A DNA stretch of 64,000 nt from a virus: the IMG/VR virus record IMGVR_UViG_3300032321_001536; one strand, given 5' to 3'. Under the pieces are notes generated by a model, which saw only the letters and a program-made list of their open reading frames with translations, did no database searches and was not told the DNA's origin. Below, in pieces: positions 20,090 to 54,208 of this stretch. The stretch's first letter is position 1; each line of letters starts with the position of its first letter. Both the position numbers and the translations under genes were made by a program.

Positions 20090-21085
20090 TTAGAATTTAT
20101 TTTTATGCCATTTCCATGCTGATGTCACCATATCTTTTACAGTTCTTGTTGGTGACCAATTGAGTATATTTCTAACCTTTGAAGAGTCTGAATATATCTC
20201 CACGACATCACCTTCTCTTCTTTCAACTATTTTGTAATTTATTTTTAAACGATTTTCTTTTTCAAATGAGTCTAAAATTTCTAAAACAGAAATACCCCAC
20301 CCTGATCCTAAATTAAAAACATCATAGTTTTTATTAGTTTCAAGAGAGTGCTCAAAAGCTAAAACGTGAGCGTCTGAGATATCGGAAACATGAATGTAAT
20401 CTCTAATACAAGTTCCATCTCTTGTTGGATAATCACCACCAAAAACATTCATTGTAGTATCTGATTCTATAGAATCACAAATAACAGGTATAATATTATT
20501 AGGTTTATTTAAAGGTGATTCTCCTATTAAACCAGACTGATGAGCACCAACCGGATTAAAGTATCTAAGTGAGATAATTTTCATATCACTTATCTTAGAG
20601 AAATCTTTGAGTATTCTTTCACCTACCAATTTAGTATAAGCGTATGGTGATTCTGGATCAGACATCGGTGAATCCTCTTTTGCTGGTAACTCTCTGAGGT
20701 TTCCATATAACGAACAAGAAGAAGAAAATACAAATGATTTGACATCAAATTTTTCAGCCGTCTCTAAAACATTTATTAAAGAATCAATGTTATTTTTATA
20801 GTATGTAAGAGGTTTTTCTACGGACTCACCAACAGCTTTAAGAGCTGCAAAATGAATAACAGAATCTATTTTATGATTTGTAAAAATATCAGATAAATCA
20901 TCTCTACAATCACAATTGACTGTGATTAATTCTTTACCAGTTATTTCTGAAATTCTATTAATAATTTCAAATCTTGAATTAGAAAAGTTATCTACTATCA
21001 CAACCTCATGTCCCTTATTTAATAATTCAACCACTGTATGTGATCCAATGTATCCAGCACCTCCTGTTACTAATATTCTTTTCAT
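20090..21085 (-). CDS. galE: UDP-glucose 4-epimerase (NAD-dependent epimerase/dehydratase)
   Basis: VTGGAGYIGSHTVVELL, YAYTK (YxxxK), 331 aa. Confidence 0.8.
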   Translation of the reverse strand: MKRILVTGGAGYIGSHTVVELLNKGHEVVIVDNFSNSRFEIINRISEITGKELITVNCDCRDDLSDIFTNHKIDSVIHFAALKAVGESVEKPLTYYKNNIDSLINVLETAEKFDVKSFVFSSSCSLYGNLRELPAKEDSPMSDPESPYAYTKLVGERILKDFSKISDMKIISLRYFNPVGAHQSGLIGESPLNKPNNIIPVICDSIESDTTMNVFGGDYPTRDGTCIRDYIHVSDISDAHVLAFEHSLETNKNYDVFNLGSGWGISVLEILDSFEKENRLKINYKIVERREGDVVEIYSDSSKVRNILNWSPTRTVKDMVTSAWKWHKNKF

Positions 21086-21540
21086 AATTTAGTTATGATA
21101 TCAGACAGATATTCACCTTTATTCAACTCAACTTTATTACAACCTGATTGATTTTCTAATTCATTCATCCAATTATCCCAATTACTTTTGAGTAATTCTA
21201 CAAACTTACCATCATTACCTCTATCAATATATCTTTGGATATATTCATCTTTGATATCTTTTTTAGGATAAACTAATGTAAAATTAATACCTTGATTTTG
21301 TAAAGCATCTCTTACTTCTTTGTGAGAAGAAACTAAAATAATATCAGCGTCTCCAATGTTGGATTTGATGTGATTTATATAGTTTTCTGGAAACTGAGAC
21401 TTATCAAATGTTGAAGAGTCACTGTCTAATATTTTTTTATCACCTTTATTTCTAAATAGGTGTGATTTTCCACAACCAGGAAAAGCAGATACAACTAAAG
21501 TATCAACTGCAGAATGTTCATTAAACTTCTTGACTTTCAT
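21082..21540 (-). CDS. small P-loop NTPase/kinase-like protein
   Basis: Walker A SAFPGCGKSH; start taken at ATG 21540. Confidence 0.5.
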   Translation of the reverse strand: MKVKKFNEHSAVDTLVVSAFPGCGKSHLFRNKGDKKILDSDSSTFDKSQFPENYINHIKSNIGDADIILVSSHKEVRDALQNQGINFTLVYPKKDIKDEYIQRYIDRGNDGKFVELLKSNWDNWMNELENQSGCNKVELNKGEYLSDIITKL

Positions 21541-22060: not shown

Positions 22061-23257
22061 ATGAAACATTTAAGAGGATATGAGAAATTCAAAGAGAGTA
22101 GGAAAATATCCGAAAACTTAAATCCAGTTAACGAAGAAATCCTCGGTTTAAAATTATTCGGGGGATTGAAGGAATTATTCGGTAAGATTTGGGACCAAGC
22201 AGTTGCTGGTATGAAGAAGCAATTAGGTAAGAATCCAGAACCAGAGAAAATAAAAGTATATCTTGACCAAAATATTTTAGACCCAAATAAACCAACTTTC
22301 ATATTCAAAAAGTTAATAGAAGACTTTAAAAATAAAGTAGAAACAAAGGAAGACGGACAAAAAACACCAGACCAGAAATGTTTAGAATTGGTTGGGAAAA
22401 TATTAGACCCAGTATCTGGTGCTTTAGGAAGTGGTCCAAAATCAAGTCTTCAACAATTATATGATGACTTATTGAAAAACTTTGGTAAAGAAACACCAAC
22501 TTTGGATATAGTAAAATACTATTTAGAGACTATAAGAAATAGAGCAATTAAGGATTATAAATATGCAAAAGGACCTGATTTAAAAGTCGGAAAACCAGTG
22601 GTAATAAATCCAAAAGATATAAACTTTACCGTAGCAGATTTGAATCACTTACCTGATTTAAAAAAGATATTGTCTCCACAAAAAGATGAAGTAGCTAAAA
22701 GAAAAGTTACATATGAGTGGGTAACTAAAACATTTTTAGTTAGATTAGACAAATATCTTTCTGAAATCAAAAACGAAGATGTTGATAAGTATATCGAATC
22801 TGTTGGTAAAGAAGTTCCAGAAGCCGGTCCAGAAGGTGGATATAAAGCAGGTGATTCAGTAATGTATAAAAGAGATAACTGGGAAAAAAATAAAGCTCAA
22901 GATATTTGGGATAAGTTGACAGACGACGAGAAAAAGAAACCTAACGAAGGAAAACTTAAAGAATTGATAGATAACGAATCAATTGGTATTAAAGTCATTA
23001 AAACTGTTGAGAAAGATTTTGTTAGATTTACTGATGTTGATTGGGTAAAAGATAACGAAGAAATTCTTGGTAAAGTAGAAGCTAAGGTAGAAGGACAAGA
23101 TGATTTAGTAACTACACTTAAAGATGTTAAAACTAAAAATCCAGAAGCAATTAAAAAACTTGATAATATTGCTAAAATTTATCAAGAGCCAGATAAGAAC
23201 AAAGATAAAATTGCCGAGATTGATAAATTAATCGGTGGAGAAGAAGAAGGTAAGTAA
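22061..23257 (+). CDS. K/E-rich hypothetical protein (398 aa)
   Basis: long ORF. Confidence 0.55.
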   Translation: MKHLRGYEKFKESRKISENLNPVNEEILGLKLFGGLKELFGKIWDQAVAGMKKQLGKNPEPEKIKVYLDQNILDPNKPTFIFKKLIEDFKNKVETKEDGQKTPDQKCLELVGKILDPVSGALGSGPKSSLQQLYDDLLKNFGKETPTLDIVKYYLETIRNRAIKDYKYAKGPDLKVGKPVVINPKDINFTVADLNHLPDLKKILSPQKDEVAKRKVTYEWVTKTFLVRLDKYLSEIKNEDVDKYIESVGKEVPEAGPEGGYKAGDSVMYKRDNWEKNKAQDIWDKLTDDEKKKPNEGKLKELIDNESIGIKVIKTVEKDFVRFTDVDWVKDNEEILGKVEAKVEGQDDLVTTLKDVKTKNPEAIKKLDNIAKIYQEPDKNKDKIAEIDKLIGGEEEGK

Positions 23258-28856: not shown

Positions 28857-28897
28857 AAGACAAATATAATAATCTTTTTTAATATATACAATTGGAT

Positions 28898-30241
28898 ATG
28901 AGATTTATTAAAGAATATAATCAATTTATTTTAGAAGAGGTATCTAAGAACGAACCTATTCCAGAACTTATTGGAACTGATAGAGGTCTTGCTATTTTCT
29001 TAATTGGAGCTCCTGGTATCGGAAAGTCTTATTTTGTTAAAAATCATATACATTCTAAAAATCCTAACATAAAGGATTTCTCAACAGATGATGTTTCTCT
29101 TCTTTATACAAAAGACCCTAACATATATTATAAAGGTAAAGAACTACCTGAAGGTGGTAGAACTAAAAACGCATCAGAGTTGAACTTAAACAGAATGGAA
29201 AAGTTTATGGAAACTGGTCAGAACTTTATCTATGATACAACCGGCGCTGGAAAAGAATTTACTGACCGTGGATTTGAACACGTCAAAGAAATCTTTGACA
29301 GTGCAAAAATTAATGAATATAAAATAGTATTCATTCATCTTCTTTCAACTTTACAAACATCAATCGAACAAGATAAGTTGAGAGACCGACACGTTGATCC
29401 ACATTATATTCAATGGGCTTATGCTAAACAACAAGGTGGTGAAATCGATGGAGTGAAAGTAGAAGGTAACATTCAAAGGTATAAAGCACTTAATCCAGAT
29501 GCTTATTATTTAGTAACATCAATAGACCAGAAATATAAGTTTTATAAATTCATTGATGGTAAATTGGCAGTTAGAAAGAATGACAGATATGTCATTAAAG
29601 AAAGTGTTGATAATAAAAATTCTACAGACCAAATAGTTGAAACTATGTTAGATTTTATTGAAGATGGATATGATGTAAAATTTATATCACACAGTGGAAG
29701 TATGACTTATCAACAATATTTAGATGGTATTCTAATGCAATCACAATTAAAATTGAGTAGTGGTGTTTTAGTTTCTCAATTTACTATTAAATTTATAAAA
29801 AATGAGAAATTTAATAACTATGAAGATTTTGTTAGAATTTGTGATGAAATGCAAGTGACAATTGCTAGACTTTCGGATATAGGTTGGTCTTTTGCAAAAT
29901 TTAATGTCAATGGTTTTGAAGGTTATGCTAATGATGAATCACCGGAGGCTAAATTCAACGAAATAGAATTCAAGTTCAAAAAGAAAGATGAAAAATCAGG
30001 TGAAAAGAAATTTGACGTTGAGGAATTTAAGAAACATTTCTCAGATAAGACTAGTTTGTATGTTAAAGATGTAACAGAGTATGATGATAATGTTTATGTT
30101 GAGTTTGACTCAATTGACTTTGATGGTGAGCTTCCAAGAAATACTGATGATAGATTAGAAAGAGTAAAAGAGTTATATGGATTTGCAACTTATGATTACA
30201 GATGGCCAGAAAAACATGTATATTTTTTCTGGGAAGACTAA
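28898..30241 (+). CDS. P-loop NTPase (polynucleotide-kinase/zeta-like N-terminal domain) with large C-terminal extension
   Basis: Walker A LIGAPGIGKSYFVK; ATG 28898 rather than TTG 28892. Confidence 0.55.
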   Translation: MRFIKEYNQFILEEVSKNEPIPELIGTDRGLAIFLIGAPGIGKSYFVKNHIHSKNPNIKDFSTDDVSLLYTKDPNIYYKGKELPEGGRTKNASELNLNRMEKFMETGQNFIYDTTGAGKEFTDRGFEHVKEIFDSAKINEYKIVFIHLLSTLQTSIEQDKLRDRHVDPHYIQWAYAKQQGGEIDGVKVEGNIQRYKALNPDAYYLVTSIDQKYKFYKFIDGKLAVRKNDRYVIKESVDNKNSTDQIVETMLDFIEDGYDVKFISHSGSMTYQQYLDGILMQSQLKLSSGVLVSQFTIKFIKNEKFNNYEDFVRICDEMQVTIARLSDIGWSFAKFNVNGFEGYANDESPEAKFNEIEFKFKKKDEKSGEKKFDVEEFKKHFSDKTSLYVKDVTEYDDNVYVEFDSIDFDGELPRNTDDRLERVKELYGFATYDYRWPEKHVYFFWED

Positions 30242-30453
30242 CCTAAAATCTTATCAATTTGTTGATTCCTCCAATCACCTTTACTACTAAAATCAGCCGA
30301 ATAACATTGAATGGTTCTCCATCCAACTGCGTTAGAATCATCAATAATTTTTACCCAAGCGAATTTAGGACCACTTTCGTGTTCAAATAATTCATAGTTT
30401 TTACCTATTTCAAGGTCTTCTCTTTTGCTTGTATTACTAACACAGATATACAT
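30238..30453 (-). CDS. hypothetical protein (71 aa) downstream of cyclase
   Basis: ORF 24 nt after cyclase gene. Confidence 0.4.
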   Translation of the reverse strand: MYICVSNTSKREDLEIGKNYELFEHESGPKFAWVKIIDDSNAVGWRTIQCYSADFSSKGDWRNQQIDKILG

Positions 30454-30477
30454 AATAACAAATATAAGAAAAAAAGT

Positions 30478-31143
30478 TTATTTAACCTTCATTTTATAAG
30501 CTTTTTCTACAGTTGCTCCTCTTAAATCATATTTAGACAAATCAACTTTTACTATCTTACCTAAAATTTGAATTTTACTCATTTTAGCCTCAAGTGGTTT
30601 AGTTGAACAGAAAGCAATAGTTCCGCCAACTTCTGATACTTTTGATTCCATTCTGGATGCTGTGTTTACTGCATTTCCGAAAAAATCTTTTAATTCTACT
30701 TTTTGAATTTTATATGTTTTTTGATCCATATGACCTTGGCAAACACCAATTCTTAAGTTGTAAGCCTTTTCACTTAGTATAACTTCTTTGGCAAACTTCA
30801 TAGCATTAAACAAAGAATCTTCAGATGTTTCAAAATAAACCATAAAAGCATCTCCAATTGTTTTGACAATCCATCCTTTGTTTTTCTCAGAAACAGAATG
30901 TATTAACTTGTGATGGCCTTCAAGTTGTTTTGACATAGTTATAGGGTCATCTGACCACATCTTTGAAGATCCAACAACATCAGTAAAAACCATCGCGGGC
31001 ATTGGTCCAGATTTTTCTTTAACTTCTTCACTATCTTTAGACTCTTTTTGAGCTTGAGTTAAAAGTCTTTCTGATCTTTTTGGATCTTCTTTAGAAACTT
31101 CATCAGCCTCGTTTATTTGATTCCAGTTATTTAGGTATTTCAT
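30478..31143 (-). CDS. class III nucleotidyl cyclase (adenylate/guanylate cyclase catalytic domain), minimal 221-aa form
   Basis: AMVFTDVVGSS (metal Asp), KTIGDAFMVYFE (second Asp), DFFGNAVNTASRMES (transition-state N/R motif). Confidence 0.8.
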   Translation of the reverse strand: MKYLNNWNQINEADEVSKEDPKRSERLLTQAQKESKDSEEVKEKSGPMPAMVFTDVVGSSKMWSDDPITMSKQLEGHHKLIHSVSEKNKGWIVKTIGDAFMVYFETSEDSLFNAMKFAKEVILSEKAYNLRIGVCQGHMDQKTYKIQKVELKDFFGNAVNTASRMESKVSEVGGTIAFCSTKPLEAKMSKIQILGKIVKVDLSKYDLRGATVEKAYKMKVK

Positions 31144-31158
31144 ATATTATATATTAAT

Positions 31159-31503
31159 TTACAGGTATAAAAAATTTTGATATTTTTCTTCATTTCTCAA
31201 ATCAACTTCAATAGTTGTTTCTTTTAAAGGTGTTGTGAATTTTACTGTTACTGTTGTCAAATAATCAGACTCAACTCCTTCTAAAATTTCTTTTAATACA
31301 ATTTCTCTTTCTTCGTCTTTTGACATTTGAATACCGGTATCAATAAACAAATTGATTTGCCAGGGTAATCTTTTTTTAGTAAATGAATAAACAGACTGTT
31401 TGAAAACACCTGGTTGTCTTAGAAGTCCTTTATAAGTGAATAGTGAGAATATTATAACTCTTACAATATAATTGTGATAGACCTCATTAATATCCAGTTT
31501 CAT
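31159..31503 (-). CDS. hypothetical protein (114 aa) immediately upstream of cyclase
   Basis: 15-nt spacing suggests co-transcription. Confidence 0.45.
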   Translation of the reverse strand: MKLDINEVYHNYIVRVIIFSLFTYKGLLRQPGVFKQSVYSFTKKRLPWQINLFIDTGIQMSKDEEREIVLKEILEGVESDYLTTVTVKFTTPLKETTIEVDLRNEEKYQNFLYL

Positions 31504-31520
31504 ATTTAATATATATTATT

Positions 31521-32018
31521 ATGATTAAAGACTGGTCAAAATTTAATGAAAGTAACTCAACTGATTCATTTAAAAGTGAGGTAAATAAGATTAGACAATA
31601 CTTTTTAGAGTATGAAGATGACGATATTATCTCATATGAGATTTTAGTTTGCGGGTTTGGTGGAGTAAGAGAGCGTGATATACTTTGGTCTGTAAATCCA
31701 AATAATGGAAATTTTGAAAGATGGGTTGATTCTCAAACACAAGAAGCTAATAGATATCTTGATAATGAGTCTTATCGTCAATTATTTTTACGCACAACTG
31801 ATTTAGATAAATATCCTTTTGTTTTTTGTGCTAACATAAAGATAAAATCAGAAAATAGTGTTTTAGATGATTTCGGAGTTGATAAACTAAAAGATGTTTT
31901 AGTTACTTGGGATAGACTTAAAGATGATTATGATAAAGTTCTAATTGATTTGAATTCACAACATAAAGATTACAAACCAATGATGATAAAGATTTATTTT
32001 AACCCAATAGTTGATTAA
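31521..32018 (+). CDS. hypothetical protein (165 aa)
   Basis: ORF. Confidence 0.5.
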   Translation: MIKDWSKFNESNSTDSFKSEVNKIRQYFLEYEDDDIISYEILVCGFGGVRERDILWSVNPNNGNFERWVDSQTQEANRYLDNESYRQLFLRTTDLDKYPFVFCANIKIKSENSVLDDFGVDKLKDVLVTWDRLKDDYDKVLIDLNSQHKDYKPMMIKIYFNPIVD

Positions 32019-32220
32019 TCTTATCCTCTCTTTCTTCTGTTTTTAAGAGTCTTTTCCATTCGGTGATTGTTACTATCTCATCTTCGTTGAATACTGATTC
32101 ATTACAAGAACTCTCAACAAACCAAAGACACTTATAAACTCCATCGGATATCTTATCAAAGATTGTCATTTTATTTCCACCTGTGGTTTTTATGACTATA
32201 TCACCGGGTTTATACTTCAT
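31999..32220 (-). CDS. small DUF2158/YodC-like protein
   Basis: MKYKPGDIVIKTTGGNKMTI resembles the (F/Y)KxGDxVxLKSGGPxMTV signature. Confidence 0.45.
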   Translation of the reverse strand: MKYKPGDIVIKTTGGNKMTIFDKISDGVYKCLWFVESSCNESVFNEDEIVTITEWKRLLKTEEREDKINQLLG

Positions 32221-32268
32221 AAAAAGATATAAATTTTTATATCTTATTTATAATTTTTTTTGTTCTTC

Positions 32269-32940
32269 CTAATTTAAAATATAGATTTTACCATCTAATT
32301 TATTTGGATTATCTAATAGAGTTTTTAAATCAGTTTGAACCATAACCGCCTTTTTATTCTTTGATAAAACTGTCAAACTATTATCAAATTTAGTAACCTC
32401 TTTGTCAAACCTAGTTATAGAAGTATACTTTGCTGATCTAAGTTCTTCATCTTTTACATACTTTGATTTATAGAGTTGTGTATTAATAAACTCAGGAATA
32501 TCTCTTACTAAACAATTACCGGAAATTGAAATCCAATCGGACTCTGGATTTATATTTAAACCAGAGTCCATCGAGTTTAGGGACACTTTGAAAGCTGTTT
32601 GTAGATTATGTAAATTATCAAAATCACAGTTGAATTTAAAAATAAAATCTTCCCAATTAGATTCTATTTTTACATTAGATATACCAGGCTGAGAAGACAT
32701 TATCTTTTCAAACTGTGTAATCTTTTGTTTCAATTCTGGAATCTTAGGAACTTTATATCCATCTAAAGAATCAAGTGAAATTATAGAGTTGACTTCTACT
32801 TTTGATGAGCTTAGATTGATTGAGTATTTAAACTTACCAGAACCATCGGAATTTATTGTTATATCATCAATCAATTCAATACAAGATGTCAAACTAATTA
32901 GACATAATAGAAAACAAAATATTTTTACAAGTTTAAACAT
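32269..32940 (-). CDS. lipoprotein (signal peptide + lipobox LTSC)
   Basis: MFKLVKIFCFLLCLISLTSC when started at ATG 32940. Confidence 0.55.
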   Translation of the reverse strand: MFKLVKIFCFLLCLISLTSCIELIDDITINSDGSGKFKYSINLSSSKVEVNSIISLDSLDGYKVPKIPELKQKITQFEKIMSSQPGISNVKIESNWEDFIFKFNCDFDNLHNLQTAFKVSLNSMDSGLNINPESDWISISGNCLVRDIPEFINTQLYKSKYVKDEELRSAKYTSITRFDKEVTKFDNSLTVLSKNKKAVMVQTDLKTLLDNPNKLDGKIYILN

Positions 32941-38379: not shown

Positions 38380-39459
38380 ATGGCATCAAGATTATTTTGT
38401 TACAACCCATCACCGAATCCTTTAATATCAGGAACCGACCAAGTCGGAAGTATAGCAGCCGTTACAGGAGTTGTAGTTCCTGATACAAGTTTAGAGTGGT
38501 GGAATGGACCAGATGAGGATCCTGGATATATTATTGCCTATAGCGAACTAACTGGAAACAGACCAAATGCGCCTGAAAGAATTTTATCAGTTAACTACAT
38601 TTGTCATATAGGATTTTTTAGAACACCGGTCAAAACTGACCAAAGTTTTATTGATTTAACTCAAATAGTTACTGGAAACTATTCTTTAACATCGGCTACT
38701 CAATCTAAAGAGTATTTAAATAACAATGGATATTGGACATCATATACAGCTTCTGTCGCACCTCCTTCGATAGTCGGAAATCAATTTACATTCTTCGATA
38801 TTACCAATCCAATCAGTTATTCAGGTGGTGATTACTGGTTAGATTTAAGTGATAATGGGCTTCAAGCATATCTTAATGGTGGAACAACTTATTCAGCAAC
38901 CAATGGTGGATTATTTGATTTTGATGGAATTGATGATACTATGAGTATTAATGACTATACGAATTTTATTTTTCAATTACAAACCGATGATTATAGAACT
39001 TTTCAAATTTGGGCTAAACTAGATACACTGCCTGTATCTGGATTTATGCCAATTTTTGGAAAGCTCTCAAGTTCTTATGGATTCGATGGTTATTTTTTAG
39101 CAGTAAATAGTAATGGAACAGTTCGTTGTGTCACAAATGGAACATCAATAAACAGAATTAGCACTTCAACTGCAACTGTATCTGCTGGAGCTTGGTATTT
39201 CTATACATTTACAACCGTGATTTCAGCAACAGCTGGTTCTACTCAAGTTTGGTTAAACACTACTCAGATAATTTCTGCTACTCACGGAACCGATACTTAT
39301 AATGAGTCTAATCCATTCTATTTTGGATATATTGGATCAGGTGTGAGTTCGCAATATTTAAATGGAAAAATTGGAGATTTCTATGTTTATGGTGAACAAT
39401 TCACACAATCACAGATTCAAAATAATTTTGATGCTACAAAAACACGATTCGGACTCTAA
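38380..39459 (+). CDS. fibre/receptor-binding-like protein, paralog A, with C-terminal concanavalin-A/LamG-like domain
   Basis: N-terminal 125 aa ~65% identical to next gene; C-terminus FQIWAKLD...AWYFYTFTT...TQVWLNTTQI LamG-like. Confidence 0.6.
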   Translation: MASRLFCYNPSPNPLISGTDQVGSIAAVTGVVVPDTSLEWWNGPDEDPGYIIAYSELTGNRPNAPERILSVNYICHIGFFRTPVKTDQSFIDLTQIVTGNYSLTSATQSKEYLNNNGYWTSYTASVAPPSIVGNQFTFFDITNPISYSGGDYWLDLSDNGLQAYLNGGTTYSATNGGLFDFDGIDDTMSINDYTNFIFQLQTDDYRTFQIWAKLDTLPVSGFMPIFGKLSSSYGFDGYFLAVNSNGTVRCVTNGTSINRISTSTATVSAGAWYFYTFTTVISATAGSTQVWLNTTQIISATHGTDTYNESNPFYFGYIGSGVSSQYLNGKIGDFYVYGEQFTQSQIQNNFDATKTRFGL

Positions 39460-39477: not shown

Positions 39478-40593
39478 ATGGCAACCTCAAGAGCATTTTG
39501 TTATAACCCATCACCAAATCCACCAATATCGGGAACTGAACAGATTGGAAGTATCGCAGCAGTAACCGGTAATGTCTCAATAGATGGAAGTCTACAATGG
39601 TGGAACGGACCAGATGAAGATTTAGGATATATTATAGCGTATGTAGATCCATCTGGTGATAGACCAAATGCGCCTGAGAGAACCTTTTTAACTAACTATG
39701 TTTGTAATATTGGTTTCTTTAGGTCAGCTGCAAAAACAGAACAAAGTTTTGTTGATTTAGTTCAAATTATTTCAGCAAGCACCTCTCTTATATTAGCTTC
39801 ACAATCTAAAACTTGGTTAAATAATAACGGATATTGGACATCATATTCAACTGTCTCTACATTAGGAACTATTGGTAATCCAGCAGTAAGTGCTCAAGCA
39901 ATTTATAATTCCGGACAAACAACAAGTGGTTGGTATTATATACAAACATCTAATATGACATCTGCTAAACAGATATATTGTAATATGACCGATGAAGGTG
40001 GTGGTTGGATGTTAATGAGTTATAGTCCAAATAATATTGCTGGGGTTCCTTTGGGTGCTCCACTGGGAATTCCTTATCCAAACCAATGGTTAGGTGGAAC
40101 TGGTTCACTTACTTCTATAGTTTCAATTGATGCTAGAGAAGTTTGGTATCATAATGGATTAGCTCAGTGTTCACAAGTTATGAAAATAGCATCAACGACC
40201 GCGTCATTAGTTCCTTTGGTATCTAATGTTCAGATTGCTAATAAAGTTATTTATAGTAATCCAAATAACTTAAGATTAAGTGCCACCTTCTCTACCACAC
40301 TGAATAATAACACACCTATGACAGGAACTTGGTCAGGTATTAAAGGACACACTTTAATGAATACTAGTTTAGCGGTAAATGCACCAGGTGATTGGATTTA
40401 TGCTGTTAATACTTGGTGGACAGTTTGTGGCCCATCTACTCAGTTATCTGCGGATGGTCGAAGTGGTAATGCTCAAGGATCAGGATCATGGACAAATATT
40501 TCAAATAGTAATATTTATGGTATGGCAGATGTTGCTGCTACCACTAGTTCATTTAGGTCAGATATTAAAACATATGCTGTTTATATTAAATAA
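39478..40593 (+). CDS. fibre/receptor-binding-like protein, paralog B, with different C-terminal domain
   Basis: shared N-terminal module (FCYNPSPNP...WWNGPDED...RPNAPER...NNNGYWTSY) then unrelated C-terminus. Confidence 0.6.
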   Translation: MATSRAFCYNPSPNPPISGTEQIGSIAAVTGNVSIDGSLQWWNGPDEDLGYIIAYVDPSGDRPNAPERTFLTNYVCNIGFFRSAAKTEQSFVDLVQIISASTSLILASQSKTWLNNNGYWTSYSTVSTLGTIGNPAVSAQAIYNSGQTTSGWYYIQTSNMTSAKQIYCNMTDEGGGWMLMSYSPNNIAGVPLGAPLGIPYPNQWLGGTGSLTSIVSIDAREVWYHNGLAQCSQVMKIASTTASLVPLVSNVQIANKVIYSNPNNLRLSATFSTTLNNNTPMTGTWSGIKGHTLMNTSLAVNAPGDWIYAVNTWWTVCGPSTQLSADGRSGNAQGSGSWTNISNSNIYGMADVAATTSSFRSDIKTYAVYIK

Positions 40594-40862: not shown

Positions 40863-41582
40863 TTAATTTGTTATTTCAATTAACTTCTTAACAACTTCTA
40901 TTCCTTCTTTGTTAAATGGTATTGGATAGAATTTAGGTGTTACTTTATCAACTCTGGTTTTCCATTCACCTTGTTTATGAATTAAATTCCAATCAACATA
41001 ATAATCTAAATACTTATTAAAAAATTCCTTATATCTAGAATATTTATCTATAATTTTGTATTTTTTATTTTCTCTTTCTTCTTCAGTGTCTCTACTATCT
41101 TGACCATAATCTATATAAAATCCTTCATAATTATCTGGACAAGAATCTAACCAATTGTGTTTACCAAAAACCTCTATTCTAAAATCATCTGAATATATAC
41201 CATCTATACCTAAAACATTTTCACAATATAATTTAAATTCTTTCCACGTTTTTATATCATCAGTTTTTGGAGTTGAACCGATTAATCTATACTTAAGATC
41301 TATTCTGGAGGTTTTATCATCAAACATACCACCTAAAAGAATATATTTTGAACTAACATATTCTAAGCCAATATCATCCATTCTTTTATCAGCAGTAAAC
41401 AATTCTCTAATACACTCCATATTATCAATTTTATCATCACTTGTTAGACTAATTGAAAAGTGTGATTCGATTCCTTCTATTTTAAAAGTAAATCCCATGT
41501 CTTTAAACTCTATGAATATATCTTCAATAGACTTTGAAATATCAGAATCTTTGGATTCTACTATTTTAGAAAATTTCCTCAT
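40863..41582 (-). CDS. hypothetical protein (239 aa)
   Basis: ORF. Confidence 0.5.
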   Translation of the reverse strand: MRKFSKIVESKDSDISKSIEDIFIEFKDMGFTFKIEGIESHFSISLTSDDKIDNMECIRELFTADKRMDDIGLEYVSSKYILLGGMFDDKTSRIDLKYRLIGSTPKTDDIKTWKEFKLYCENVLGIDGIYSDDFRIEVFGKHNWLDSCPDNYEGFYIDYGQDSRDTEEERENKKYKIIDKYSRYKEFFNKYLDYYVDWNLIHKQGEWKTRVDKVTPKFYPIPFNKEGIEVVKKLIEITN

Positions 41583-41813: not shown

Positions 41814-43718
41814 ATGAAAATTTTTAAAATTATTAGCAGCTTGCTGTTACTAATGGCCTTTGCTACGTCAGTAAAGGCACAAAACGGTCCACCATCACCA
41901 TCTAATGGAATCTGGGGAATCATCGACACCAACTATCAAGTTGGAACAAGTGTTCAGGGTCACACAACCGCAAAATTGACTTTACAGAACACTACTTTTA
42001 ATAAAATAACTGGAGTTCAGTTTAGAGTATTTTATGATAAAAATGCTTTTTCTTCCGTAGCTGTATCTCTTGTAAATCCAGGAGCAAACCTTTATGTTCA
42101 GAGTTTAGATAACAATGTTAATGGGTATGTTACAATCACTTTAGTTTATACTGGATCAAGTTCTACTTATACACTTCCAAATGGTGAAACGTTCTTGTTA
42201 GACTTCACACATATTATACCAAGTTCATCTTTTCAAGCTTTAGCGGCAATTGGTAACTTGACTTGGACCGGTGTAAATGCTTATCCACAAGTTGCGGCAG
42301 AACAACCAGGAAATGATATAGCTCTTTCGTTACATAACTACGGAGGTAACTTTATCAGACCTACATTAGACTATCACGGAACATTTACTAATGTTACTGG
42401 CTCAGCTGCTAAAAACCTATCATTGGCTTTAGAGAAAAAACCTAAGACATCAAACGTTTGGGCACAACACTCAACTTATATGACAGATATCAACGGTGAC
42501 TTTCAATTAAGTGAAACTATTGATACAACATTCTGGGATGTAAGATTAGCAATTCAAGGAGATACAATGGCGGTTGGAAACGTAATCTCTGTAGCAGATG
42601 CTCAACAAATAAATCAATGGATTTTAGGTTCTTCTAACCCACAATCTTGGGATTATTATCACTCTGATGTTAACGCTGATAACAACTTAACTATATCAGA
42701 TGCTTGGGGTGTGTTTGGTAGAATCTCTGGAAGATTTGCGGTATGGCCAAACAACGTAAAAGATGTTAAGTTCTTTAGTGTGTCTGAATATAACACAATC
42801 ACAGGAACACCAGCGACTAACTACACAACAACAATCACTGGTCAAACAAACTTCTATTTCAATATCTTACCTAATCAACCTGACTCTGTAACTTTCTATG
42901 TTTTAGTTCCGGGAGATGCTAACAACACAGGATATCACATGGCACGTTTAGTTCCAATTGAAATTGAAAACCCTGCTAATGCACCTACACACTTAATTGA
43001 TGAGTCTGTTATTTATGACTTCAATGTTTCATCTGTTGAAGTAAACGTTCCATCTCTTTCAGTTGAAGAAGGAAACTTAGTGAAACTTCCGGTTAAATTA
43101 TTTACTGGTGGTAAAAGTGTTGGAGCTTTACAACTATCATTAAAATATGATGAAGAGTTGTTAGAGTTTATTGAATTAAATAATAGTGAAAAATCTATGA
43201 ACTGGATGAGTTTTATTAATCCTATGGACGGAATCGTTGAGTGGGGTGGATATGACGCTTCATTAAATGAAAATCTTTTCGTAGACGGTGAGACAGTTTT
43301 CACACTTAACTTTTTAGCTAAAAAACCACAAGGTGAGTGGGCTGTAAGTCCTCTTTATACAACAAGAAAATTTGTTGGTGATGAGTCAGCTACTGATATG
43401 GAAGTTACACCAACTAACGGAGTTTATGAAGTTAAATCTCTTAATGGTGTTGAATTAAAAGATAACGAAATTCTTGTTTATCCTAACCCAACTACTGGAG
43501 AAGTTATTATCAAATTTAATGTATCAATTGATGGTAATGTAAGTTTAGCTTTTGTAGACGGAAATGGTAAAAGAGCAATTACAGTATTTGAACAATATAT
43601 GCCGAGTGGGAATTATGCTTACTCAGCTACTTTAGAAAGTCTAAGACCAGGAACTTATTACACTACACTTACTACTCAAGCGGGTATATCTGTGAATAAA
43701 ACTATTTTGGCGAAATAA
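41814..43718 (+). CDS. secreted multidomain protein with type IX secretion system C-terminal sorting domain (T9SS CTD, Por_Secre_tail type), two cohesin-like modules and dockerin-type calcium loops
   Basis: signal peptide ...ATSVKAQ; C-terminus ILVYPNPTTGEVIIKF...GNYAYSATLESLRPGTYYTTLTT...KTILAK; cohesin-like GNLVKLPVKL...LSLKYDEELLEF. Confidence 0.8.
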   Translation: MKIFKIISSLLLLMAFATSVKAQNGPPSPSNGIWGIIDTNYQVGTSVQGHTTAKLTLQNTTFNKITGVQFRVFYDKNAFSSVAVSLVNPGANLYVQSLDNNVNGYVTITLVYTGSSSTYTLPNGETFLLDFTHIIPSSSFQALAAIGNLTWTGVNAYPQVAAEQPGNDIALSLHNYGGNFIRPTLDYHGTFTNVTGSAAKNLSLALEKKPKTSNVWAQHSTYMTDINGDFQLSETIDTTFWDVRLAIQGDTMAVGNVISVADAQQINQWILGSSNPQSWDYYHSDVNADNNLTISDAWGVFGRISGRFAVWPNNVKDVKFFSVSEYNTITGTPATNYTTTITGQTNFYFNILPNQPDSVTFYVLVPGDANNTGYHMARLVPIEIENPANAPTHLIDESVIYDFNVSSVEVNVPSLSVEEGNLVKLPVKLFTGGKSVGALQLSLKYDEELLEFIELNNSEKSMNWMSFINPMDGIVEWGGYDASLNENLFVDGETVFTLNFLAKKPQGEWAVSPLYTTRKFVGDESATDMEVTPTNGVYEVKSLNGVELKDNEILVYPNPTTGEVIIKFNVSIDGNVSLAFVDGNGKRAITVFEQYMPSGNYAYSATLESLRPGTYYTTLTTQAGISVNKTILAK

Positions 43719-44788: not shown

Positions 44789-45517
44789 ATGAAACCACTA
44801 CGATTACTTTTAATAATGACATCTATGCTACTTGGCTTTACCCAAGTAGCATTTAGTCAGATTGGTTCTGTGAAAACAGAATCATATCAAGCATCTTTTG
44901 AGAAAACACAATCAATTGATAGTGTATCTAATTACACAGATACAATACAAATTCCTATTCAACTACTTAAAATTGGCATCAATGCTGAACTTTATGAACT
45001 TTATCCTGAATTAAAGGATAAGAGAGTTGGTTTGGGTGTCACTAATATCGTAATTGAATATTTAGAAATGACCGGTAGATTTGTTTTTACCGAAGAGAAA
45101 GAAGAAATCAAACAAAGGATGATTGCACAAGATAAAGCATCAGACAAAGGTGTTTCTTCAAATAAGATTGAAGTAAAAGGAAACGTTGTTTTAGCAAAAT
45201 ACTTTGTTTATATCGAAGTTTATGATTTCTCTGTATCAGAAGATGAAGTAGTTAAAGTAAATGGCGAACAAAAAACAACTCAAACTACAAGATTAGGATT
45301 ACAAATCAAATTTGTAGATGCTGAAACTAGTGAAGTATTAGTAGGATCTGGTTTAGGAGAAGCTTCAACGATTAAAACCGAATCTATTTTAGATGGTGTT
45401 GAAGACGGTGTTAAATTTAACCAATCAACAATTGGTATAACAACTAAAAAAGCATTAGAAACATCTTCTTCAAGAGTTGTTACAAGAATGATTAAAAAAG
45501 GAATATTTAAAAGCTAA
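44789..45517 (+). CDS. CsgG/TolB-N-like periplasmic/outer-membrane lipoprotein-like protein
   Basis: signal peptide ...VAFSQ; KDKRVGLGVTNIVIEYLEMTGRFVFTEEKEEIKQ resembles CsgG core (R-V-A-V...TGRF-V-ER). Confidence 0.45.
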   Translation: MKPLRLLLIMTSMLLGFTQVAFSQIGSVKTESYQASFEKTQSIDSVSNYTDTIQIPIQLLKIGINAELYELYPELKDKRVGLGVTNIVIEYLEMTGRFVFTEEKEEIKQRMIAQDKASDKGVSSNKIEVKGNVVLAKYFVYIEVYDFSVSEDEVVKVNGEQKTTQTTRLGLQIKFVDAETSEVLVGSGLGEASTIKTESILDGVEDGVKFNQSTIGITTKKALETSSSRVVTRMIKKGIFKS

Positions 45518-47473
45518 ATGAAAATTTATAAATTTTTAATTGCTTTTATTTTTTTATTATTATCAACGATTGAATTAAAAGCACAAACATTTCTTTATTC
45601 TTATACAGACCCATGCACTGGTTTGTTAAAAAGTTTAACAGTTCCTACTAATGGGGTTACTGTGACTTATTTTGGTCAAATACAAACTTTTAATCCGTCT
45701 GATTTTCAAAACGGTGTTTTCGATCAGTGGGCTAATGGAGTATTAAGCACTTACGGAAACGAAAATCCCTGTGGATCTGTTATTGGTGTTGGAACCAGTG
45801 TTGATATAGCTCAAGGTTCCGCTATCAACTTTATATCGATCATAAATAATATATCAGCATTAAGTGAACTTCAAAGTGCCATGGGTGGAGGATCACTTAA
45901 TACAATGAGTGTGATAGAAAGTACTAAGTCTGCATCTGGTAAGAAAGATAAAAAAGATAAGAATAACACAACCAACGGAACTAATCAAACTGTAACAAAT
46001 TCAAATATTGAATCGGGAAATAATTCTAATCAATCAAATGAAAATGGTCAAAGTGGAAATAGTGGTTCTAACACTTCACAAAATAGTAACGGACAAAATG
46101 GCGGTGAATCTGGAACTTCCGGTCAAAATTCATCTAATCAAAGTGGAGGATCTAATAATCAAAATAGTGAATCTTCTAACAACAATTCCGAAACAACAAA
46201 TGGTGAGAATAATCAAAGTAGTAACTCTCAAAGTAGTAACTCTCAAAATACTAACGGTGGATCAAATTCAAATAATTCATCCAACTCGAATCAAAATGGT
46301 GAGAGTAATCAGACAACATCAAATGGTCAATCACAAAGTAACTCAAATGAAAATGGCAATTTATCAACTCAATCAGGAGAAGGTGGTCAAAATCAAGGAG
46401 GTGAAAATGGAGGTTCAATTAATTCAACCGGTCAATTAAATCAAACTTTATCAGGATCGACACAAAATGGTCAGAATGAAGGTGGTAACAATTCACAAAA
46501 TAATCAATCATCTCAAAATTCTACAACTGAGAACACTCAAAACGAAAATGGTCAGTCCGGTCAAAACAACCAGAATTCAAACTCTACTAGTTCTGAACAA
46601 CAGTCTGGTCAAAATTTAAATAACTCTGAAAACACATCTCAGAATTCTTCAGAATCGTCCAATACACAAACTGGTTCTCAAACTTCTAATGGTTCTAATG
46701 GTAGTTCAGGATCTAGTCAAGAATCTAGTGGTAATCCACCAAATGGTTCTGAAAGTGCAACAGAAACCACAGAAGAAAAAAAGATTAACTCTTTAGGTGG
46801 AACTGTAAACTCAACTCAAAGATCTACTGAAAGTAATAAACCACAAATTGTTTTGAGTTCTGATTTTGCTGGATTTAACTTTAGAGATAAAGAAGTAAGT
46901 TTTGGTGGTAAAGGAACCGCTGGATACACTTCTATGAGATGGGATGGTAAAAGAAGTTATGGAGTTCTTTTAGATTACACATCTATTATTAGAGGACCAA
47001 ATGTAACAGGATTCTGGGCTAATATGGCAAAAAGAAGAATCGATTTAATTTCTGTAACCGCTACTATTAGTTTTTACGGTAGAGGTTCTCAATACGGAAC
47101 ATTAGCTTTAGGTCAAATGTGGAGTTTTCCTAAAGTTAAAAATTTAAAAGCTATCTATTTAGCAACTGGTTCATTTGGAAATGTTTATGGTGAAACATTT
47201 TTAGGAACAGCAGCAATTGCTGGTGGAATGTATGACTGGAAAGTTTCTAAAAGAATTGATGTTAAACTAATGAATCTATTTATATACGCTCCTTATGTGA
47301 GTTACTATAATGATATTTTACTTAAATCTCCTTATGTTATTATGCCAATTATCGGGACTAATATCGGAATAACAAAGAAATTCAAATTCAATGTTAATTT
47401 CGGAGGAGCTTATGCGATAAATGAAAACGTAATGAACTTCACTTTGATGTTTGGAACAAGATTAGCAATATGA
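45518..47473 (+). CDS. secreted protein: signal peptide, ~275-aa S/N/Q/G-rich low-complexity region, C-terminal beta-barrel-like domain (possibly PorP/SprF-like outer-membrane protein)
   Basis: signal ...IELKAQ; alternating hydrophobic beta-strand pattern in last ~210 aa; PorP/SprF assignment is tentative. Confidence 0.55.
   Translation: MKIYKFLIAFIFLLLSTIELKAQTFLYSYTDPCTGLLKSLTVPTNGVTVTYFGQIQTFNPSDFQNGVFDQWANGVLSTYGNENPCGSVIGVGTSVDIAQGSAINFISIINNISALSELQSAMGGGSLNTMSVIESTKSASGKKDKKDKNNTTNGTNQTVTNSNIESGNNSNQSNENGQSGNSGSNTSQNSNGQNGGESGTSGQNSSNQSGGSNNQNSESSNNNSETTNGENNQSSNSQSSNSQNTNGGSNSNNSSNSNQNGESNQTTSNGQSQSNSNENGNLSTQSGEGGQNQGGENGGSINSTGQLNQTLSGSTQNGQNEGGNNSQNNQSSQNSTTENTQNENGQSGQNNQNSNSTSSEQQSGQNLNNSENTSQNSSESSNTQTGSQTSNGSNGSSGSSQESSGNPPNGSESATETTEEKKINSLGGTVNSTQRSTESNKPQIVLSSDFAGFNFRDKEVSFGGKGTAGYTSMRWDGKRSYGVLLDYTSIIRGPNVTGFWANMAKRRIDLISVTATISFYGRGSQYGTLALGQMWSFPKVKNLKAIYLATGSFGNVYGETFLGTAAIAGGMYDWKVSKRIDVKLMNLFIYAPYVSYYNDILLKSPYVIMPIIGTNIGITKKFKFNVNFGGAYAINENVMNFTLMFGTRLAI
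45950..46780 (+). repeat. coding low-complexity/degenerate repeat region (NS/NQ/GS-rich)
   Basis: reiterated aat/agt/caa/ggt codons; alt-frame ORF 46008..46439 is an artefact of this. Confidence 0.6.
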
Positions 47474-48642
47474 GAAACTTAATTATAACACTTTTAGTAA
47501 TTTTCAATATCTTTGCAATAGACGCTCAACCATTTACTTACTCTGGTTGGGTAAAGGGAGCAAATGAACAAGGACTTTCTAATGTTCCCGTAACTCTTTG
47601 GGGTAGGAGAACTGATCCATATGATATCACTTATCCAGCTTACTCAACTGCTGCTTCTTACACAACAGGAACTGTTATACCATCATCGGATGATGTAACA
47701 CACGGTCCATTTAATATAGGATTTACTTTTAATTTCTTTGGTAATAACTACACACAGTTTTATGTAGGATCAAACGGTTGGATTGGATTTAGTCCAGGAC
47801 AAACTACCGGATATGTAGCTCAGTATATTCCAAATGCTTCTTCTCCTATGAATACTATATTAGCAGACTGGGAAGATCTTTTTCCGGGAGCATCAAATAT
47901 AAGATACACAACTATCGGAGTAGCACCTAATAGACAATTAGTAGTTTCTTTTAACGCTGTTCCACACTATGGATGTAACACAAATTTACACACTTTTCAA
48001 TTTGTTCTAAAAGAAACATCTGGTATAATTGATATTAACTATCAATCTAAACCTCAATGTGGTGCTAACAATGCTACTGCTGGTTTAGTTAACTCTAATA
48101 ATACTAATGTCGTTCCAGTTGGTGGTAAAAACGCTTCTCAATGGAATGTCACAAATTATTCTGTTAGATTTACACCATCGGCGGCTGAAACAACATTTTC
48201 TTTAAAAGGAACTTATTTGACAAACGCATCTGGTTATTTTACAATGGTTCCTAATTTAGATGCTCAATCTTATCAATTTGAAGTTAGATTGGAAAGTTTG
48301 ACAATGCCAAATTTTACACCAACTGAAACAAACTATCCAAATCAATTAAGTCATTCTGGAACAACTTTAAATTCAAAGTTATTTTATCAAATGGATATTA
48401 ATAATGATGGTAGAGTCAATGTAGCAGATTCTTGGTGTATTTATGGTAAAGCATCAGGTGTATTTCCTACTTGGTTAAATTCACCAAATTATAGAATATT
48501 TAACCAAACTCAATGGAATGTTATTAAGGTTGGAACAACTAATCTTAAATCAACATACCCAGGTGTTCAATCAATGATAATAACGCCAGTCAATGGTGGG
48601 TCAACTACATTCTATTTAGTTAGAACTGGATTCACAAATTAA
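47470..48642 (+). CDS. secreted protein with dockerin-type calcium-binding loop
   Basis: signal ...FAIDAQ; DINNDGRVNVADSWCIYGKASGVFPTWLN mirrors DVNADNNLTISDAWGVFGRISGRFAVWPN in 41814 gene. Confidence 0.55.
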   Translation: MRNLIITLLVIFNIFAIDAQPFTYSGWVKGANEQGLSNVPVTLWGRRTDPYDITYPAYSTAASYTTGTVIPSSDDVTHGPFNIGFTFNFFGNNYTQFYVGSNGWIGFSPGQTTGYVAQYIPNASSPMNTILADWEDLFPGASNIRYTTIGVAPNRQLVVSFNAVPHYGCNTNLHTFQFVLKETSGIIDINYQSKPQCGANNATAGLVNSNNTNVVPVGGKNASQWNVTNYSVRFTPSAAETTFSLKGTYLTNASGYFTMVPNLDAQSYQFEVRLESLTMPNFTPTETNYPNQLSHSGTTLNSKLFYQMDINNDGRVNVADSWCIYGKASGVFPTWLNSPNYRIFNQTQWNVIKVGTTNLKSTYPGVQSMIITPVNGGSTTFYLVRTGFTN

Positions 48643-48659
48643 AAAATAAAACAACCACT

Positions 48660-49112
48660 ATGAAAACACTTTTAATTTCAATTTTAATCTTCTTACCAAC
48701 ATTATTATTTGGCCAAAATTGCGTAACTGTGGATTCAGTTTACTCTACTTGTAAAGCAAAAGAAATAAATAGAAGAGATATTAGATTCGGTCTAAAGCAA
48801 ATAGCAGAAGATGAACTATCTAACAAATATTGTTTATCAGATGACGGTGATGATATAGATTTAGAAGTTTACTATTTCGGAACTCCTAAAACCACAATTA
48901 GAATATTGGGTGTTGAGAAAACAGATATGAAAACTCAAGTCGGTGTCAAAATGTATTATAAAGGTGTGACTTATGAAAGTATTGGTGAGTCAGAAGTAGA
49001 AGTAAGAGCAGTTATGATAGAACTTGTCGAAGGTTCAATTCCATTTAATCAAACAGTTCTTTCTTCGGCTATAAAAAAGGCTATCATCGAATGTATTTCA
49101 AAAATGCCATAA
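48660..49112 (+). CDS. small secreted protein (150 aa)
   Basis: signal peptide MKTLLISILIFLPTLLFGQ. Confidence 0.45.
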   Translation: MKTLLISILIFLPTLLFGQNCVTVDSVYSTCKAKEINRRDIRFGLKQIAEDELSNKYCLSDDGDDIDLEVYYFGTPKTTIRILGVEKTDMKTQVGVKMYYKGVTYESIGESEVEVRAVMIELVEGSIPFNQTVLSSAIKKAIIECISKMP

Positions 49113-49549
49113 TTTTTGTTTTTCTACTGTTAACAACTAATTTATTCTCACAAATATTGGTTGATGATGTTGGTGATGGTTGGAAATCTCAAGTTGACTC
49201 TGCTCTTTTATTAATTAAAAAAACCAGTCCAGAACATTGGACTGAAGTAGAAAATTATTGCACTCACATCACATTTTGGTTAGGTAATTTTTCTACAACA
49301 ACAGATTCATCAACAGTTATGATATCAACAAAAGATATTAGATTGAATTCAATTAATAATTTAGCTTGTATAATTATACACGAAACTCACCATCTTTACA
49401 TACTGAATAAAGGTATTAAATTGACTGAACCTAAAGAAGAGTTAGAATGTTATTTATATGAACTAAAATTTGTAAATAAGTTAAAAGACTGTGAATTTTG
49501 GTTAAAAGCACATGTAATTAAGTGTATAAATCACTATTCTGAAGAATAA
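49091..49549 (+). CDS. small secreted HExxH zinc-metallopeptidase-like protein
   Basis: signal ...NLFSQ; IIHETHHLYIL (HExxH). Confidence 0.5.
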   Translation: MYFKNAIIFVFLLLTTNLFSQILVDDVGDGWKSQVDSALLLIKKTSPEHWTEVENYCTHITFWLGNFSTTTDSSTVMISTKDIRLNSINNLACIIIHETHHLYILNKGIKLTEPKEELECYLYELKFVNKLKDCEFWLKAHVIKCINHYSEE

Positions 49550-52526: not shown

Positions 52527-52979
52527 ATGAAATGGATTAAATCATACAAACTATTTGAAAATTCAGAATTCGAAACCGAAAAATTCATTGAAGAAATACT
52601 TTTTGATATTACCGATAATGATATTCCAATTGATATATCTTGTTTCGAAGACAAGAAATCAGGAGTTTGGATAGATAGATGTTTAATTCTTATTGGCGAT
52701 GAAGATAATCCAATAGCAAAAGATATACCTCTACACCTTTATATAGATAATCTAATAAGTCTAAATAATTATATGACAGAAGACGAAGGTTGGGAACTAA
52801 GAAATATAGCTTGTTGGATTAAACCAGCTAATGTTCCAACCACAGGAGTAAGACCAATTACCGCTAGAACCTTCAATGTATTTTTAGAAAAGATAGAAGA
52901 AGTTAAAACATGGAATGAAAAACACCCACCAATCGAATGGAAAACATTTAAACTGGTAGATATCTGTTATGAGAAATAA
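52527..52979 (+). CDS. hypothetical protein (150 aa)
   Basis: ORF. Confidence 0.5.
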   Translation: MKWIKSYKLFENSEFETEKFIEEILFDITDNDIPIDISCFEDKKSGVWIDRCLILIGDEDNPIAKDIPLHLYIDNLISLNNYMTEDEGWELRNIACWIKPANVPTTGVRPITARTFNVFLEKIEEVKTWNEKHPPIEWKTFKLVDICYEK

Positions 52980-54207: not shown

Positions 54208-54208
54208 G

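Follow-up and report, generated by a model that had tools for sequence, protein, structure and literature searches.

The class III fold of nucleotidyl cyclases has already been met in the conflict between phages and bacteria, where the small cyclases of Pycsar systems (PycC) adopt it, some of them as single-domain proteins (PMC11224242). PycC enzymes are encoded by the bacterium and stand beside an effector that binds cyclic mononucleotides (cNMPs) and carries a TIR or transmembrane part. Phages, for their part, are known to counter the immune nucleotides of bacteria by degrading or sequestering them. In the literature searched, synthesis of a classical second messenger by a phage enzyme is noted just as an annotation, and no paper came up under phrases for an adenylate or adenylyl cyclase encoded by a phage or virus. 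In the curli/type VIII secretion (T8SS) clusters of pelagiphages, an annotated adenylate cyclase was proposed to make cyclic AMP (cAMP) during infection (PMC9599517). The gene considered here lies in IMG/VR virus record IMGVR_UViG_3300032321_001536, within a stretch of 64,000 nucleotides that was analysed as a whole (the window), and encodes a protein of 221 amino acids (aa) with the fold and catalytic residues of a class III cyclase. With a probability of about one half, it is read as an active, sensor-less adenylate cyclase of a Bacteroidota phage of Mahaphage type that would raise cAMP in the infected cell. Enzymes of this kind are known; its sensor-less viral clade, a movable RS.RLLT motif and an N-terminus resembling a capsid-targeting sequence appear to be undescribed.

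The assignment as a class III nucleotidyl cyclase is sound, and the finding is real. The protein matches Pfam family PF00211 (Guanylate_cyc) with E=8e-19 and 68.4 bits against a curated cut-off of 21.9, far beyond chance, and the Pfam scan found no other domain in it. The original prediction had quoted three motifs and a complete catalytic signature. All three are present (FTDVVGSS at residues 53-60, IGDAFMVYF at 96-104 and DFFGNAVNTASRMES at 153-167), and both metal-binding Asp and the N/R motif hold up in alignments, in the PF00211 match and in the structural model. D55 and D98 align to the metal Asp of solved cyclases, K94 and D153 occupy the base-specifying positions, N160 and R164 are the transition-state residues within NTASRME, an N-x-x-x-R helix motif, and R208 lies in the phosphate loop (L-R-G). 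Two family alignments of 20 and 67 sequences, with mean column identities of 49% and 30%, show D55, D98 and R164 to be invariant, and K94, D153, N160 and the L207-x-G209 phosphate loop to be invariant or at least 90% conserved. An AlphaFold2 (AF2) model built on the 67-sequence alignment reached a mean predicted local distance difference test (pLDDT) value of 85 and a predicted template-modelling score (pTM) of 0.78, with residues ~45-221 above 90 and residues 1-40 below 55. Searched with Foldseek, the model gave guanylate and adenylate cyclase catalytic domains as its top matches (probability 1.00, target-normalised template-modelling score 0.77).

The nearest sequences in the PDB are the receptor-type adenylate cyclases of Trypanosoma brucei, GRESAG4.3 (E=5e-10) and GRESAG4.1 (1e-9), followed by bacterial and algal cyclase domains. 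GRESAG4.1/4.3 (PDB 1FX2, 1FX4), like Rv1625c, CyaC and CyaB, share their fold and catalytic machinery with the phage protein, and the phage motifs are close to those of the euglenozoan enzymes (FTD..S, VKT.GD.FM). In contrast to these enzymes, the phage protein has no sensor, membrane anchor or second Pfam domain; it begins with a conserved signal-like peptide and carries the RS.RLLT motif of its clade.

The original prediction had pointed to the base-specifying residues as the means of telling ATP from GTP. In the PDB alignment they are of the ATP type: K94 and D153 stand where the T. brucei adenylate cyclases have Lys and Asp and where the Chlamydomonas guanylate cyclase 3et6 has Glu (in 'VETIGD') and Cys (in 'FCLFGD'). 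These contacts form the canonical purine (adenine) pair, unlike the sets found in PycC clades B, D and E (PMC11224242). On this evidence the product is probably cAMP.

By analogy with other single-chain class III enzymes that hold all catalytic residues, the protein would form a head-to-tail homodimer with two symmetric active sites and convert ATP to 3',5'-cAMP and pyrophosphate with the help of two divalent metals. It is probably constitutive once in the cell, because it has no regulatory domain, and its activity would increase the cyclic-nucleotide level during infection without being subject to control by the host. Host cyclic-nucleotide receptors, or candidate phage receptors, would read the signal, and host physiology would be reprogrammed in the phage's favour. 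The N-terminal leader, with its signal-like peptide and the motif RSERLLTQAQ, and, in the closest clade, the product of the adjoining p71 gene may modulate localisation, dimerisation or activity. The bacterial adenylate cyclase toxins CyaA, EF and ExoY (class II) have an unrelated fold and belong to another class; they act on eukaryotic cells and depend on activators found there (calmodulin, actin). The likeness to them would be one of function only, that of a parasite's unregulated cyclase swamping host signalling. Given the clear sequence hallmarks of the viral clade, a single small soluble protein would suffice for a direct test of whether phages take over the cAMP signalling of their hosts by making the messenger, and a compact, possibly constitutive cyclase of ~175 residues could serve as a tool.

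Several points weigh against an active adenylate cyclase acting on the host. No cNMP-binding family is among the Pfam families listed for the other 92 proteins of the 64-kb window. cAMP signalling is poorly documented in Bacteroidota, the proposed host phylum; genomes of that phylum encode multi-domain class III cyclases of their own (L078, L104, L117, L119, L123 and L127), so cyclic-nucleotide signalling does exist there. The leader is modelled as disordered by AF2, and the enzyme could require a partner or processing for activity. Finally, the uridylate cyclase AnPycC, of clade D, also has a Lys (K104) four residues before a metal Asp (PMC11224242), and the Lys/Asp pair is therefore no proof of ATP specificity.

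The viral origin of the DNA, which the original prediction had assumed, is supported by a baseplate wedge protein (467-2257) that is 49% identical to those of uncultured phages of 642 kb and 634 kb; its more distant relatives occur in phages of 636 and 735 kb, in Lak phages and in phages of Flavobacterium, Tenacibaculum and Chryseobacterium. The largest of these genomes, those of 634 and 642 kb among them, form the Mahaphage clade, for which Bacteroidetes hosts are predicted, in a report that mentions neither a cyclase nor a cyclic nucleotide (PMC7162821). A secreted protein (41814-43718 (+)) combines a cohesin domain with a full-length C-terminal sorting domain of the type IX secretion system, and signal peptides that end in ...FSQ or ...KAQ are found on many proteins of the window; both features fit a host from the Bacteroidota. 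By these sequence characters the window is that of a Mahaphage-type huge phage of Bacteroidota. It has a GC content of ~29%, a coding density of 93% and two tRNAs, and its other genes include those for FolD, phosphoribosyl pyrophosphate synthetase, sugar-nucleotide enzymes, a sigma-70 factor, a Dam methylase and a QueF-like protein.

Relatives of the cyclase were sought at several depths. A word-indexed search returned 401 clusters, the best 120 of which are all 217-228 aa long, at least 70% identical and located on contigs of up to 493 kb, while a profile search gave 1,300 proteins at E<=1e-10. This profile search, run with alignment A1, listed the close family again and added nothing distant. 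A library of representatives at 50% identity yielded 247 matches at E<=1e-10; the best 150 of these include 127 short proteins with a single domain and 22 of more than 1,000 aa, and the long ones that were looked up come from euglenozoans (Diplonema) and have more than one cyclase domain each. Next best after the viral clade come P0128, P0130, P0132, P0143 and P0147, proteins of 1,500-4,800 aa from Diplonema and similar euglenozoans with three to four cyclase domains; the euglenozoan cyclases outscore every bacterial homolog, which hints, at the level of sequence similarity, at an evolutionary link with the viral enzymes.

IMG/VR contains 45 loci with cyclases of 33-72% identity, on contigs of up to 483 kb. 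Across 185,579 species-representative bacterial and archaeal genomes, identity does not exceed 32%, apart from a single match of 54% on a 12.5-kb contig binned as Patescibacteria. That contig has a GC content of 27.9%, is 76% identical in nucleotides to a huge phage of 462 kb and carries neighbouring genes with phage-typical N-termini; it was judged phage-like on these three counts, and a cellular origin of the match was rejected. On the evidence searched, the clade thus appears to be restricted to viruses, namely huge phages and T4-like aquatic phages. Two IMG/VR contigs labelled as giant-virus metagenome-assembled genomes (GVMAG; L047 and L048) contain leaderless members of the clade at 39-43% identity, one of them from the same lake sample as a 302-kb phage contig. 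Among reference phage genomes, LR745206 (634 kb) is the sole match, at 58% identity; the 642-kb phage is equally related to the window and has no match to the cyclase, and the distribution is therefore patchy.

The cyclase gene is flanked on the same strand by two small genes, p71 and p114 (Table 1). The original prediction had described three minus-strand open reading frames (ORFs) here, with small neighbours devoid of recognisable domains. All three lie where it placed them, separated by 24 nt (p71-cyclase) and 15 nt (cyclase-p114), and neither p71 nor p114 has a match in Pfam, PHROGs or PADLOC. The cyclase itself falls in no PHROGs family. Comparison with related loci gave ratios of nonsynonymous to synonymous substitution (dN/dS) of 0.13-0.25 for the cyclase, 0.22-0.55 for p71 and 0.06-0.23 for p114; all three genes are under purifying selection and are therefore real genes. 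The stop codon of p71 overlaps by 4 nt that of a convergent gene for a 449-aa P-loop protein.

Table 1. Position of the cyclase, its parts and associated features in the window.
Feature	Position	Strand	Basis or remark
Class III adenylate-type cyclase gene, 221 aa (stop codon included)	30478..31143	-	ORF, PF00211, AF2, Foldseek
Catalytic core, residues 49-221 (D55, D98, K94, D153, N160, R164, R208)	30481..30999	-	Alignments, AF2
N-terminal 12-residue signal-like peptide MKYLNNWNQINE	31108..31143	-	Amphipathic; ends I-x-E, then Ala
Leader motif RSERLLTQAQ, residues 23-32	31048..31077	-	Specific to the viral cyclase clade
p71 gene, 71 aa	30238..30453	-	ORF; downstream companion of the cyclase, clade-specific
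p114 gene, 114 aa	31159..31503	-	ORF; upstream of the cyclase, synteny-limited neighbour
15-nt spacer with TTAATATATAAT directly 5' of the cyclase ATG	31144..31158	-	Read from sequence; promoter-like or initiation element
HD hydrolase gene, 215 aa	57454-58101	-	Class-I-phosphodiesterase-like motifs YHNNEH, HDFNHSG

At least six syntenic groups can be distinguished among the viral loci. In the group of the window, the order is a 73-aa gene (DUF2158), the 114-aa gene, the cyclase, the 71-aa gene and the convergent P-loop gene. A sister group retains the cyclase with a 71/74-aa gene, has an unrelated gene of ~110 aa upstream, and continues downstream with SpoVR, DUF444 and PrkA. Homologs of p114 precede the cyclase in L001, L002, L013 and L014, whereas the unrelated ~110-aa family replaces it in L005, L007 and L009. 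The Mahaphage-like loci L001, L014 and L034 have the 114-aa gene and no 71-aa gene, and the more distant viral loci have neither. All full-length loci of the close clade have p71 directly downstream of the cyclase, and they do so in two different wider contexts. The p71 family is small (20 clusters in 5.8 billion proteins) and without a Pfam domain; C4, H25 and C50 are invariant, and a poor AF2 model (pLDDT 60) predicts five beta-strands and a C-terminal helix. Profile-profile comparison of the neighbour families across the syntenic groups found no relationship at a probability of 50% or more, so there is no hidden universal partner among them.

The three-gene unit of the original prediction is thus lineage-specific, with p114 replaceable and p71 confined to the closest clade. 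Its suggestion that the two small proteins might be regulators or effectors of the cyclase finds no backing in synteny either: since they are not kept with the cyclase across loci, neither can be an obligatory one. It is plausible that p71 is a clade-specific companion; p114 is a mere neighbour. The want of a universal neighbour in at least six syntenic contexts is consistent with an enzyme working through factors encoded elsewhere.

Further observations concern these neighbours. The C-terminal tails of the 73-aa DUF2158 protein (31999-32220 (-); ...REDKINQLLG) and of p71 (...RNQQIDKILG) are alike, with no detectable homology between the two proteins, and the 73-aa gene is immediately upstream of the 114-aa gene in L002. 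The convergent 449-aa protein (28892-30241 (+)) begins with a weak P-loop kinase-like domain (AAA_33, zeta-toxin/polynucleotide-kinase-like), from which its homolog of 233 aa in the 634-kb phage (L001 6684-7385 (-)) is free. In the sister lineage (L005 6958-9654 (-), L007 2642-7450 (-)), the cyclase pair adjoins the SpoVR-DUF444-PrkA operon, a stress kinase operon of the yeaG/yeaH/ycgB type; the SpoVR gene of L005 is split by an intein with a LAGLIDADG endonuclease.

Synteny also bears on the idea that the locus is a phage-borne, Pycsar-like module for defence or superinfection exclusion, with p71 or p114 as the effector. A small single-domain cyclase tightly linked to small genes has the outline of such a module, and PADLOC gives a PycC match. 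This match is marginal (E=0.003, 14.6 bits over 60 residues, against 68.4 bits for the general cyclase model), and no PycC chain is among the PDB sequence matches at E<=0.01; membership in Pycsar was rejected. The original prediction had already remarked that the transmembrane and TIR effectors of Pycsar are missing, and neither Pfam nor PADLOC detects a TIR, transmembrane or cNMP-binding effector adjacent to the cyclase. The neighbours, moreover, have no cNMP-binding, TIR or multi-transmembrane architecture and are not conserved with the cyclase across the family. Synteny largely refutes such a module, which is highly improbable. In contrast to PycC systems, the cyclase of the window is encoded by the phage and is not accompanied by such an effector. 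The pelagiphage cyclase, described at the level of annotation, shares its cluster for curli secretion with genes for a histidine kinase and FecR (PMC9599517); there is no such cluster here.

Between L013 (4641-5925) and positions 30238-31503 of the window, the flanks are 70-80% identical and the cyclase just 56%, which suggests a mosaic exchange in which recombination replaced the cyclase allele at this site. An apparent restriction to viruses, a patchy distribution and mosaic exchange are together a typical pattern of conflict genes. They would suit a role in counter-defence, where a flood of cyclic mononucleotide disturbs host cyclic-nucleotide immunity (Pycsar or related) or switches off cAMP-regulated defence genes. 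That a single huge phage of the reference set matched the cyclase agrees with this pattern, and immune signalling by cyclic mononucleotides does exist (PMC11224242); a cGMP-based variant is also on record. Known phage countermeasures, however, destroy or sequester the signal (PMC9117128), whereas making the activating nucleotide would trigger abortive infection. The adenine-type residues are, in addition, unlike those of any characterised PycC. Counter-defence is accordingly given little credence, and a constitutive adenylate cyclase addressing host receptors is preferred.

Ahead of its catalytic core, this adenylate cyclase candidate has a leader of ~48 aa. The original prediction had recognised an acidic and Lys-rich leader of ~45 aa; a leader does exist, but it is not mere filler, as two motifs in it are conserved and purifying selection acts on it (omega 0.20-0.42; the core has 0.12-0.22). 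The second of these motifs, RSERLLTQAQ, is N-terminal in all 15 leader-type members. A near-identical [KR]RS.RLLT is found in ~33 of 52 leaderless relatives, there inside an insertion before the last strand. Across 120 short representatives, RS.RLLT was N-terminal in 14, C-terminal in 61 and missing from 45. The other ORFs of these loci, 1,424 in number and together ~200,000 residues long, contain no match. Absent from other ORFs, yet at two alternative positions in cyclases, the motif is intrinsic to the cyclase clade, and its behaviour suggests a short docking element.

Cellular class III cyclases offer a possible counterpart. In 28 of 66 of them, a transducer element, [KR][ST]E.LLLNILP..IA..LK (for example AKSERLLLNILPEAVADELKEKG), stands 37 residues before the first metal Asp. 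In the window cyclase, KRSERLL stands at -32 from that residue, and other residues take the place of the hydrophobic half, LNILP..IA. A profile built from 27 cellular transducer elements gave the window leader a marginal 3.3 bits, a score matched by 3 of 200 shuffles, and it was not consistent across the family, with no significant score for 5 of 15 members. Compared alone with the PDB, the leader retrieved no cyclase, just a spurious helical match to protein A.

The first motif of the leader is the N-terminal peptide MKYLNNWNQINE, which ends I10-N11-E12 and is followed by Ala13. A hydrophobic residue, any residue and Glu occur in this order within the first 14 residues of 14 of the 15 leader-type cyclases, and of most relatives with short extensions too; examples of relatives' N-termini are MKTFIEFINE|S (L031), MKIINKFNIFE|A (L015) and MKHLKVYKIYE|A. 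The capsid-targeting sequence (CTS) of phage T4 is MKTYQEFIAE, which is cleaved once and suffices for the packaging of foreign proteins (PMC8442874). In T4, as in the window, proteins that are otherwise unrelated (the internal proteins and Alt) share an amphipathic N-terminus of about ten residues, in which a small residue comes next after hydrophobic-x-Glu. The window peptide is two residues longer, loosely similar and known from sequence alone, and the T4 cargo consists of DNA-binding or ADP-ribosylating proteins, not cyclases.

The resemblance raises the prospect that the cyclase is virion cargo, packed into the prohead through a T4-type CTS, clipped after I-N-E12 by the prohead protease and injected with the DNA. 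cAMP would then rise at the first moment of infection, ahead of any phage gene expression; as a mode of delivery, this is compatible with a constitutive adenylate cyclase acting on the host. Beyond the family N-termini themselves, it draws on similar N-termini on the P-loop protein, on the HD hydrolase and on the L054 neighbours MIKNFEDFLNE and MGHIKSFDEFLNE. Within the window such N-termini are enriched: 15 of 93 lie above the 95th percentile of an internal-sequence background, with 4.65 expected, and when the peptide was defined from the cyclases of other loci alone, 6 of 92 exceeded the 99th percentile (0.92 expected). In other lineages the cyclase keeps company with late or structural genes, standing in T4-like lineages beside a gp55-type late sigma factor gene and a gp4-type head-closure gene, and in another lineage two genes after the major head protein. 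Set against this, the ungapped alignment of the window N-terminus with the T4 CTS is poor (score -1), an N-terminal extension is missing altogether from many distant members of the family, and AT-rich genomes favour N-termini rich in K, N, F, Y and I. A T4 gp21-type prohead protease is not in the 64-kb window, with no such protease having been examined. The T4 specificity is Leu/Ile-x-Glu, yet many of the sites here have Phe. Packaging and injection are supported, not established, by the peptide data, and delivery in the virion is best regarded as possible while on balance unlikely.

If it were so, the phage would deliver a ready-made unregulated adenylate cyclase, a phage counterpart of a bacterial cyclase toxin, and the short peptide may mark packaged proteins in the largest known phages. 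The fullest version of the proposal, in which the cyclase is a packaged and injected effector, RS.RLLT is its docking or activation element and ~10 similar window proteins are a co-injected effector set, is unlikely.

The shared peptide can also be described for its own sake. About ten unrelated window proteins have the N-terminus M-K-x-[LI]-K-x-[FY]-x-x-[FI]-x-E, with Ser or Ala next in most of them, in the manner of the T4 CTS. These are encoded at 3317-3700(+), 21082-21540(-), 22061-23257(+), 31521-32018(+), 40863-41582(-), 52527-52979(+), 60942-61286(+) and ~61300-61593(+), and by the genes of the convergent P-loop protein, at 28898-30241(+), and the HD hydrolase. The same type of peptide occurs on proteins in L001, L005, L007, L031, L049 and L054.

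The HD hydrolase, whose N-terminus MRLKTFNDF is similar to that of the cyclase, brings in a different reading, that of a circuit internal to the phage. Receptors encoded by the phage would read the cyclic nucleotide, a phosphodiesterase of the phage would remove it, and the signal would time the programme of the phage itself instead of addressing host regulators. In its favour, the hydrolase matches the Pfam family PDEase_I with 26.9 bits (cut-off 24.8), all of its PDB matches are 3',5'-cNMP phosphodiesterases, and huge phages have their own sigma factor and much regulatory machinery. The PDEase_I match, however, spans 48 of 238 profile positions, and the PDB matches have E values of ~0.01 or worse. 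Homologs of the hydrolase occur in many jumbo phages that have no cyclase, and none was found in the cyclase-bearing LR745206; for these two reasons, the gene was rejected as an obligate partner of the cyclase and counts as a lead. Nor, as stated above, is a cNMP-binding domain among the families listed for the window. An internal circuit is thus rather improbable, and a host-directed adenylate cyclase remains the preferred reading.

Little can be said of the transcription of the locus from standard signals. No intrinsic terminator was detected within 29800-32400, and a scan for sigma-70 promoters, which is uninformative for a Bacteroidota phage, returned fewer sites than in shuffled sequences. 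The sequence AATATATA occurs within 45 nt upstream of 13 of the 93 window genes, p114 and the cyclase included, with 0.6 expected. In the form TTAATATATA(A/T), the DNA element is ~21-fold enriched 5' of start codons, often just 12-18 nt from the ATG, and lies upstream of 13-19 window genes (for example at 31146-31157, 31504-31520 and 28860-28890). Its possible functions are those of a phage promoter or of an initiation element for short leaders. An association of the element with the class of N-terminal peptide was considered and dismissed as not significant (Fisher p=0.087).

Other parts of the window show further traits of the phage. The two tRNAs, tRNA-Arg(TCT) and tRNA-Leu(TAA), lie at 54208-54402 (-) and both read A/T-rich codons. 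Signal or lipoprotein peptides of Bacteroidota style are encoded at 44789-49549 (+), 55600-55800 (-), 58098-58445 (-), 60122-60829 (-), 61630-61869 (-) and 62257-63138 (-), and many proteins of the phage seem destined for the envelope or surface of the host. Two tandem paralogs (38380-39459 (+) and 39478-40593 (+)) both start with MA(S/T)(S)R(L/A)FCYNPSPNP; one has a Laminin_G_3 domain (concanavalin-like lectin) and the other a short fibrinogen-C-like match, and the pair may be receptor-binding or fibre proteins.

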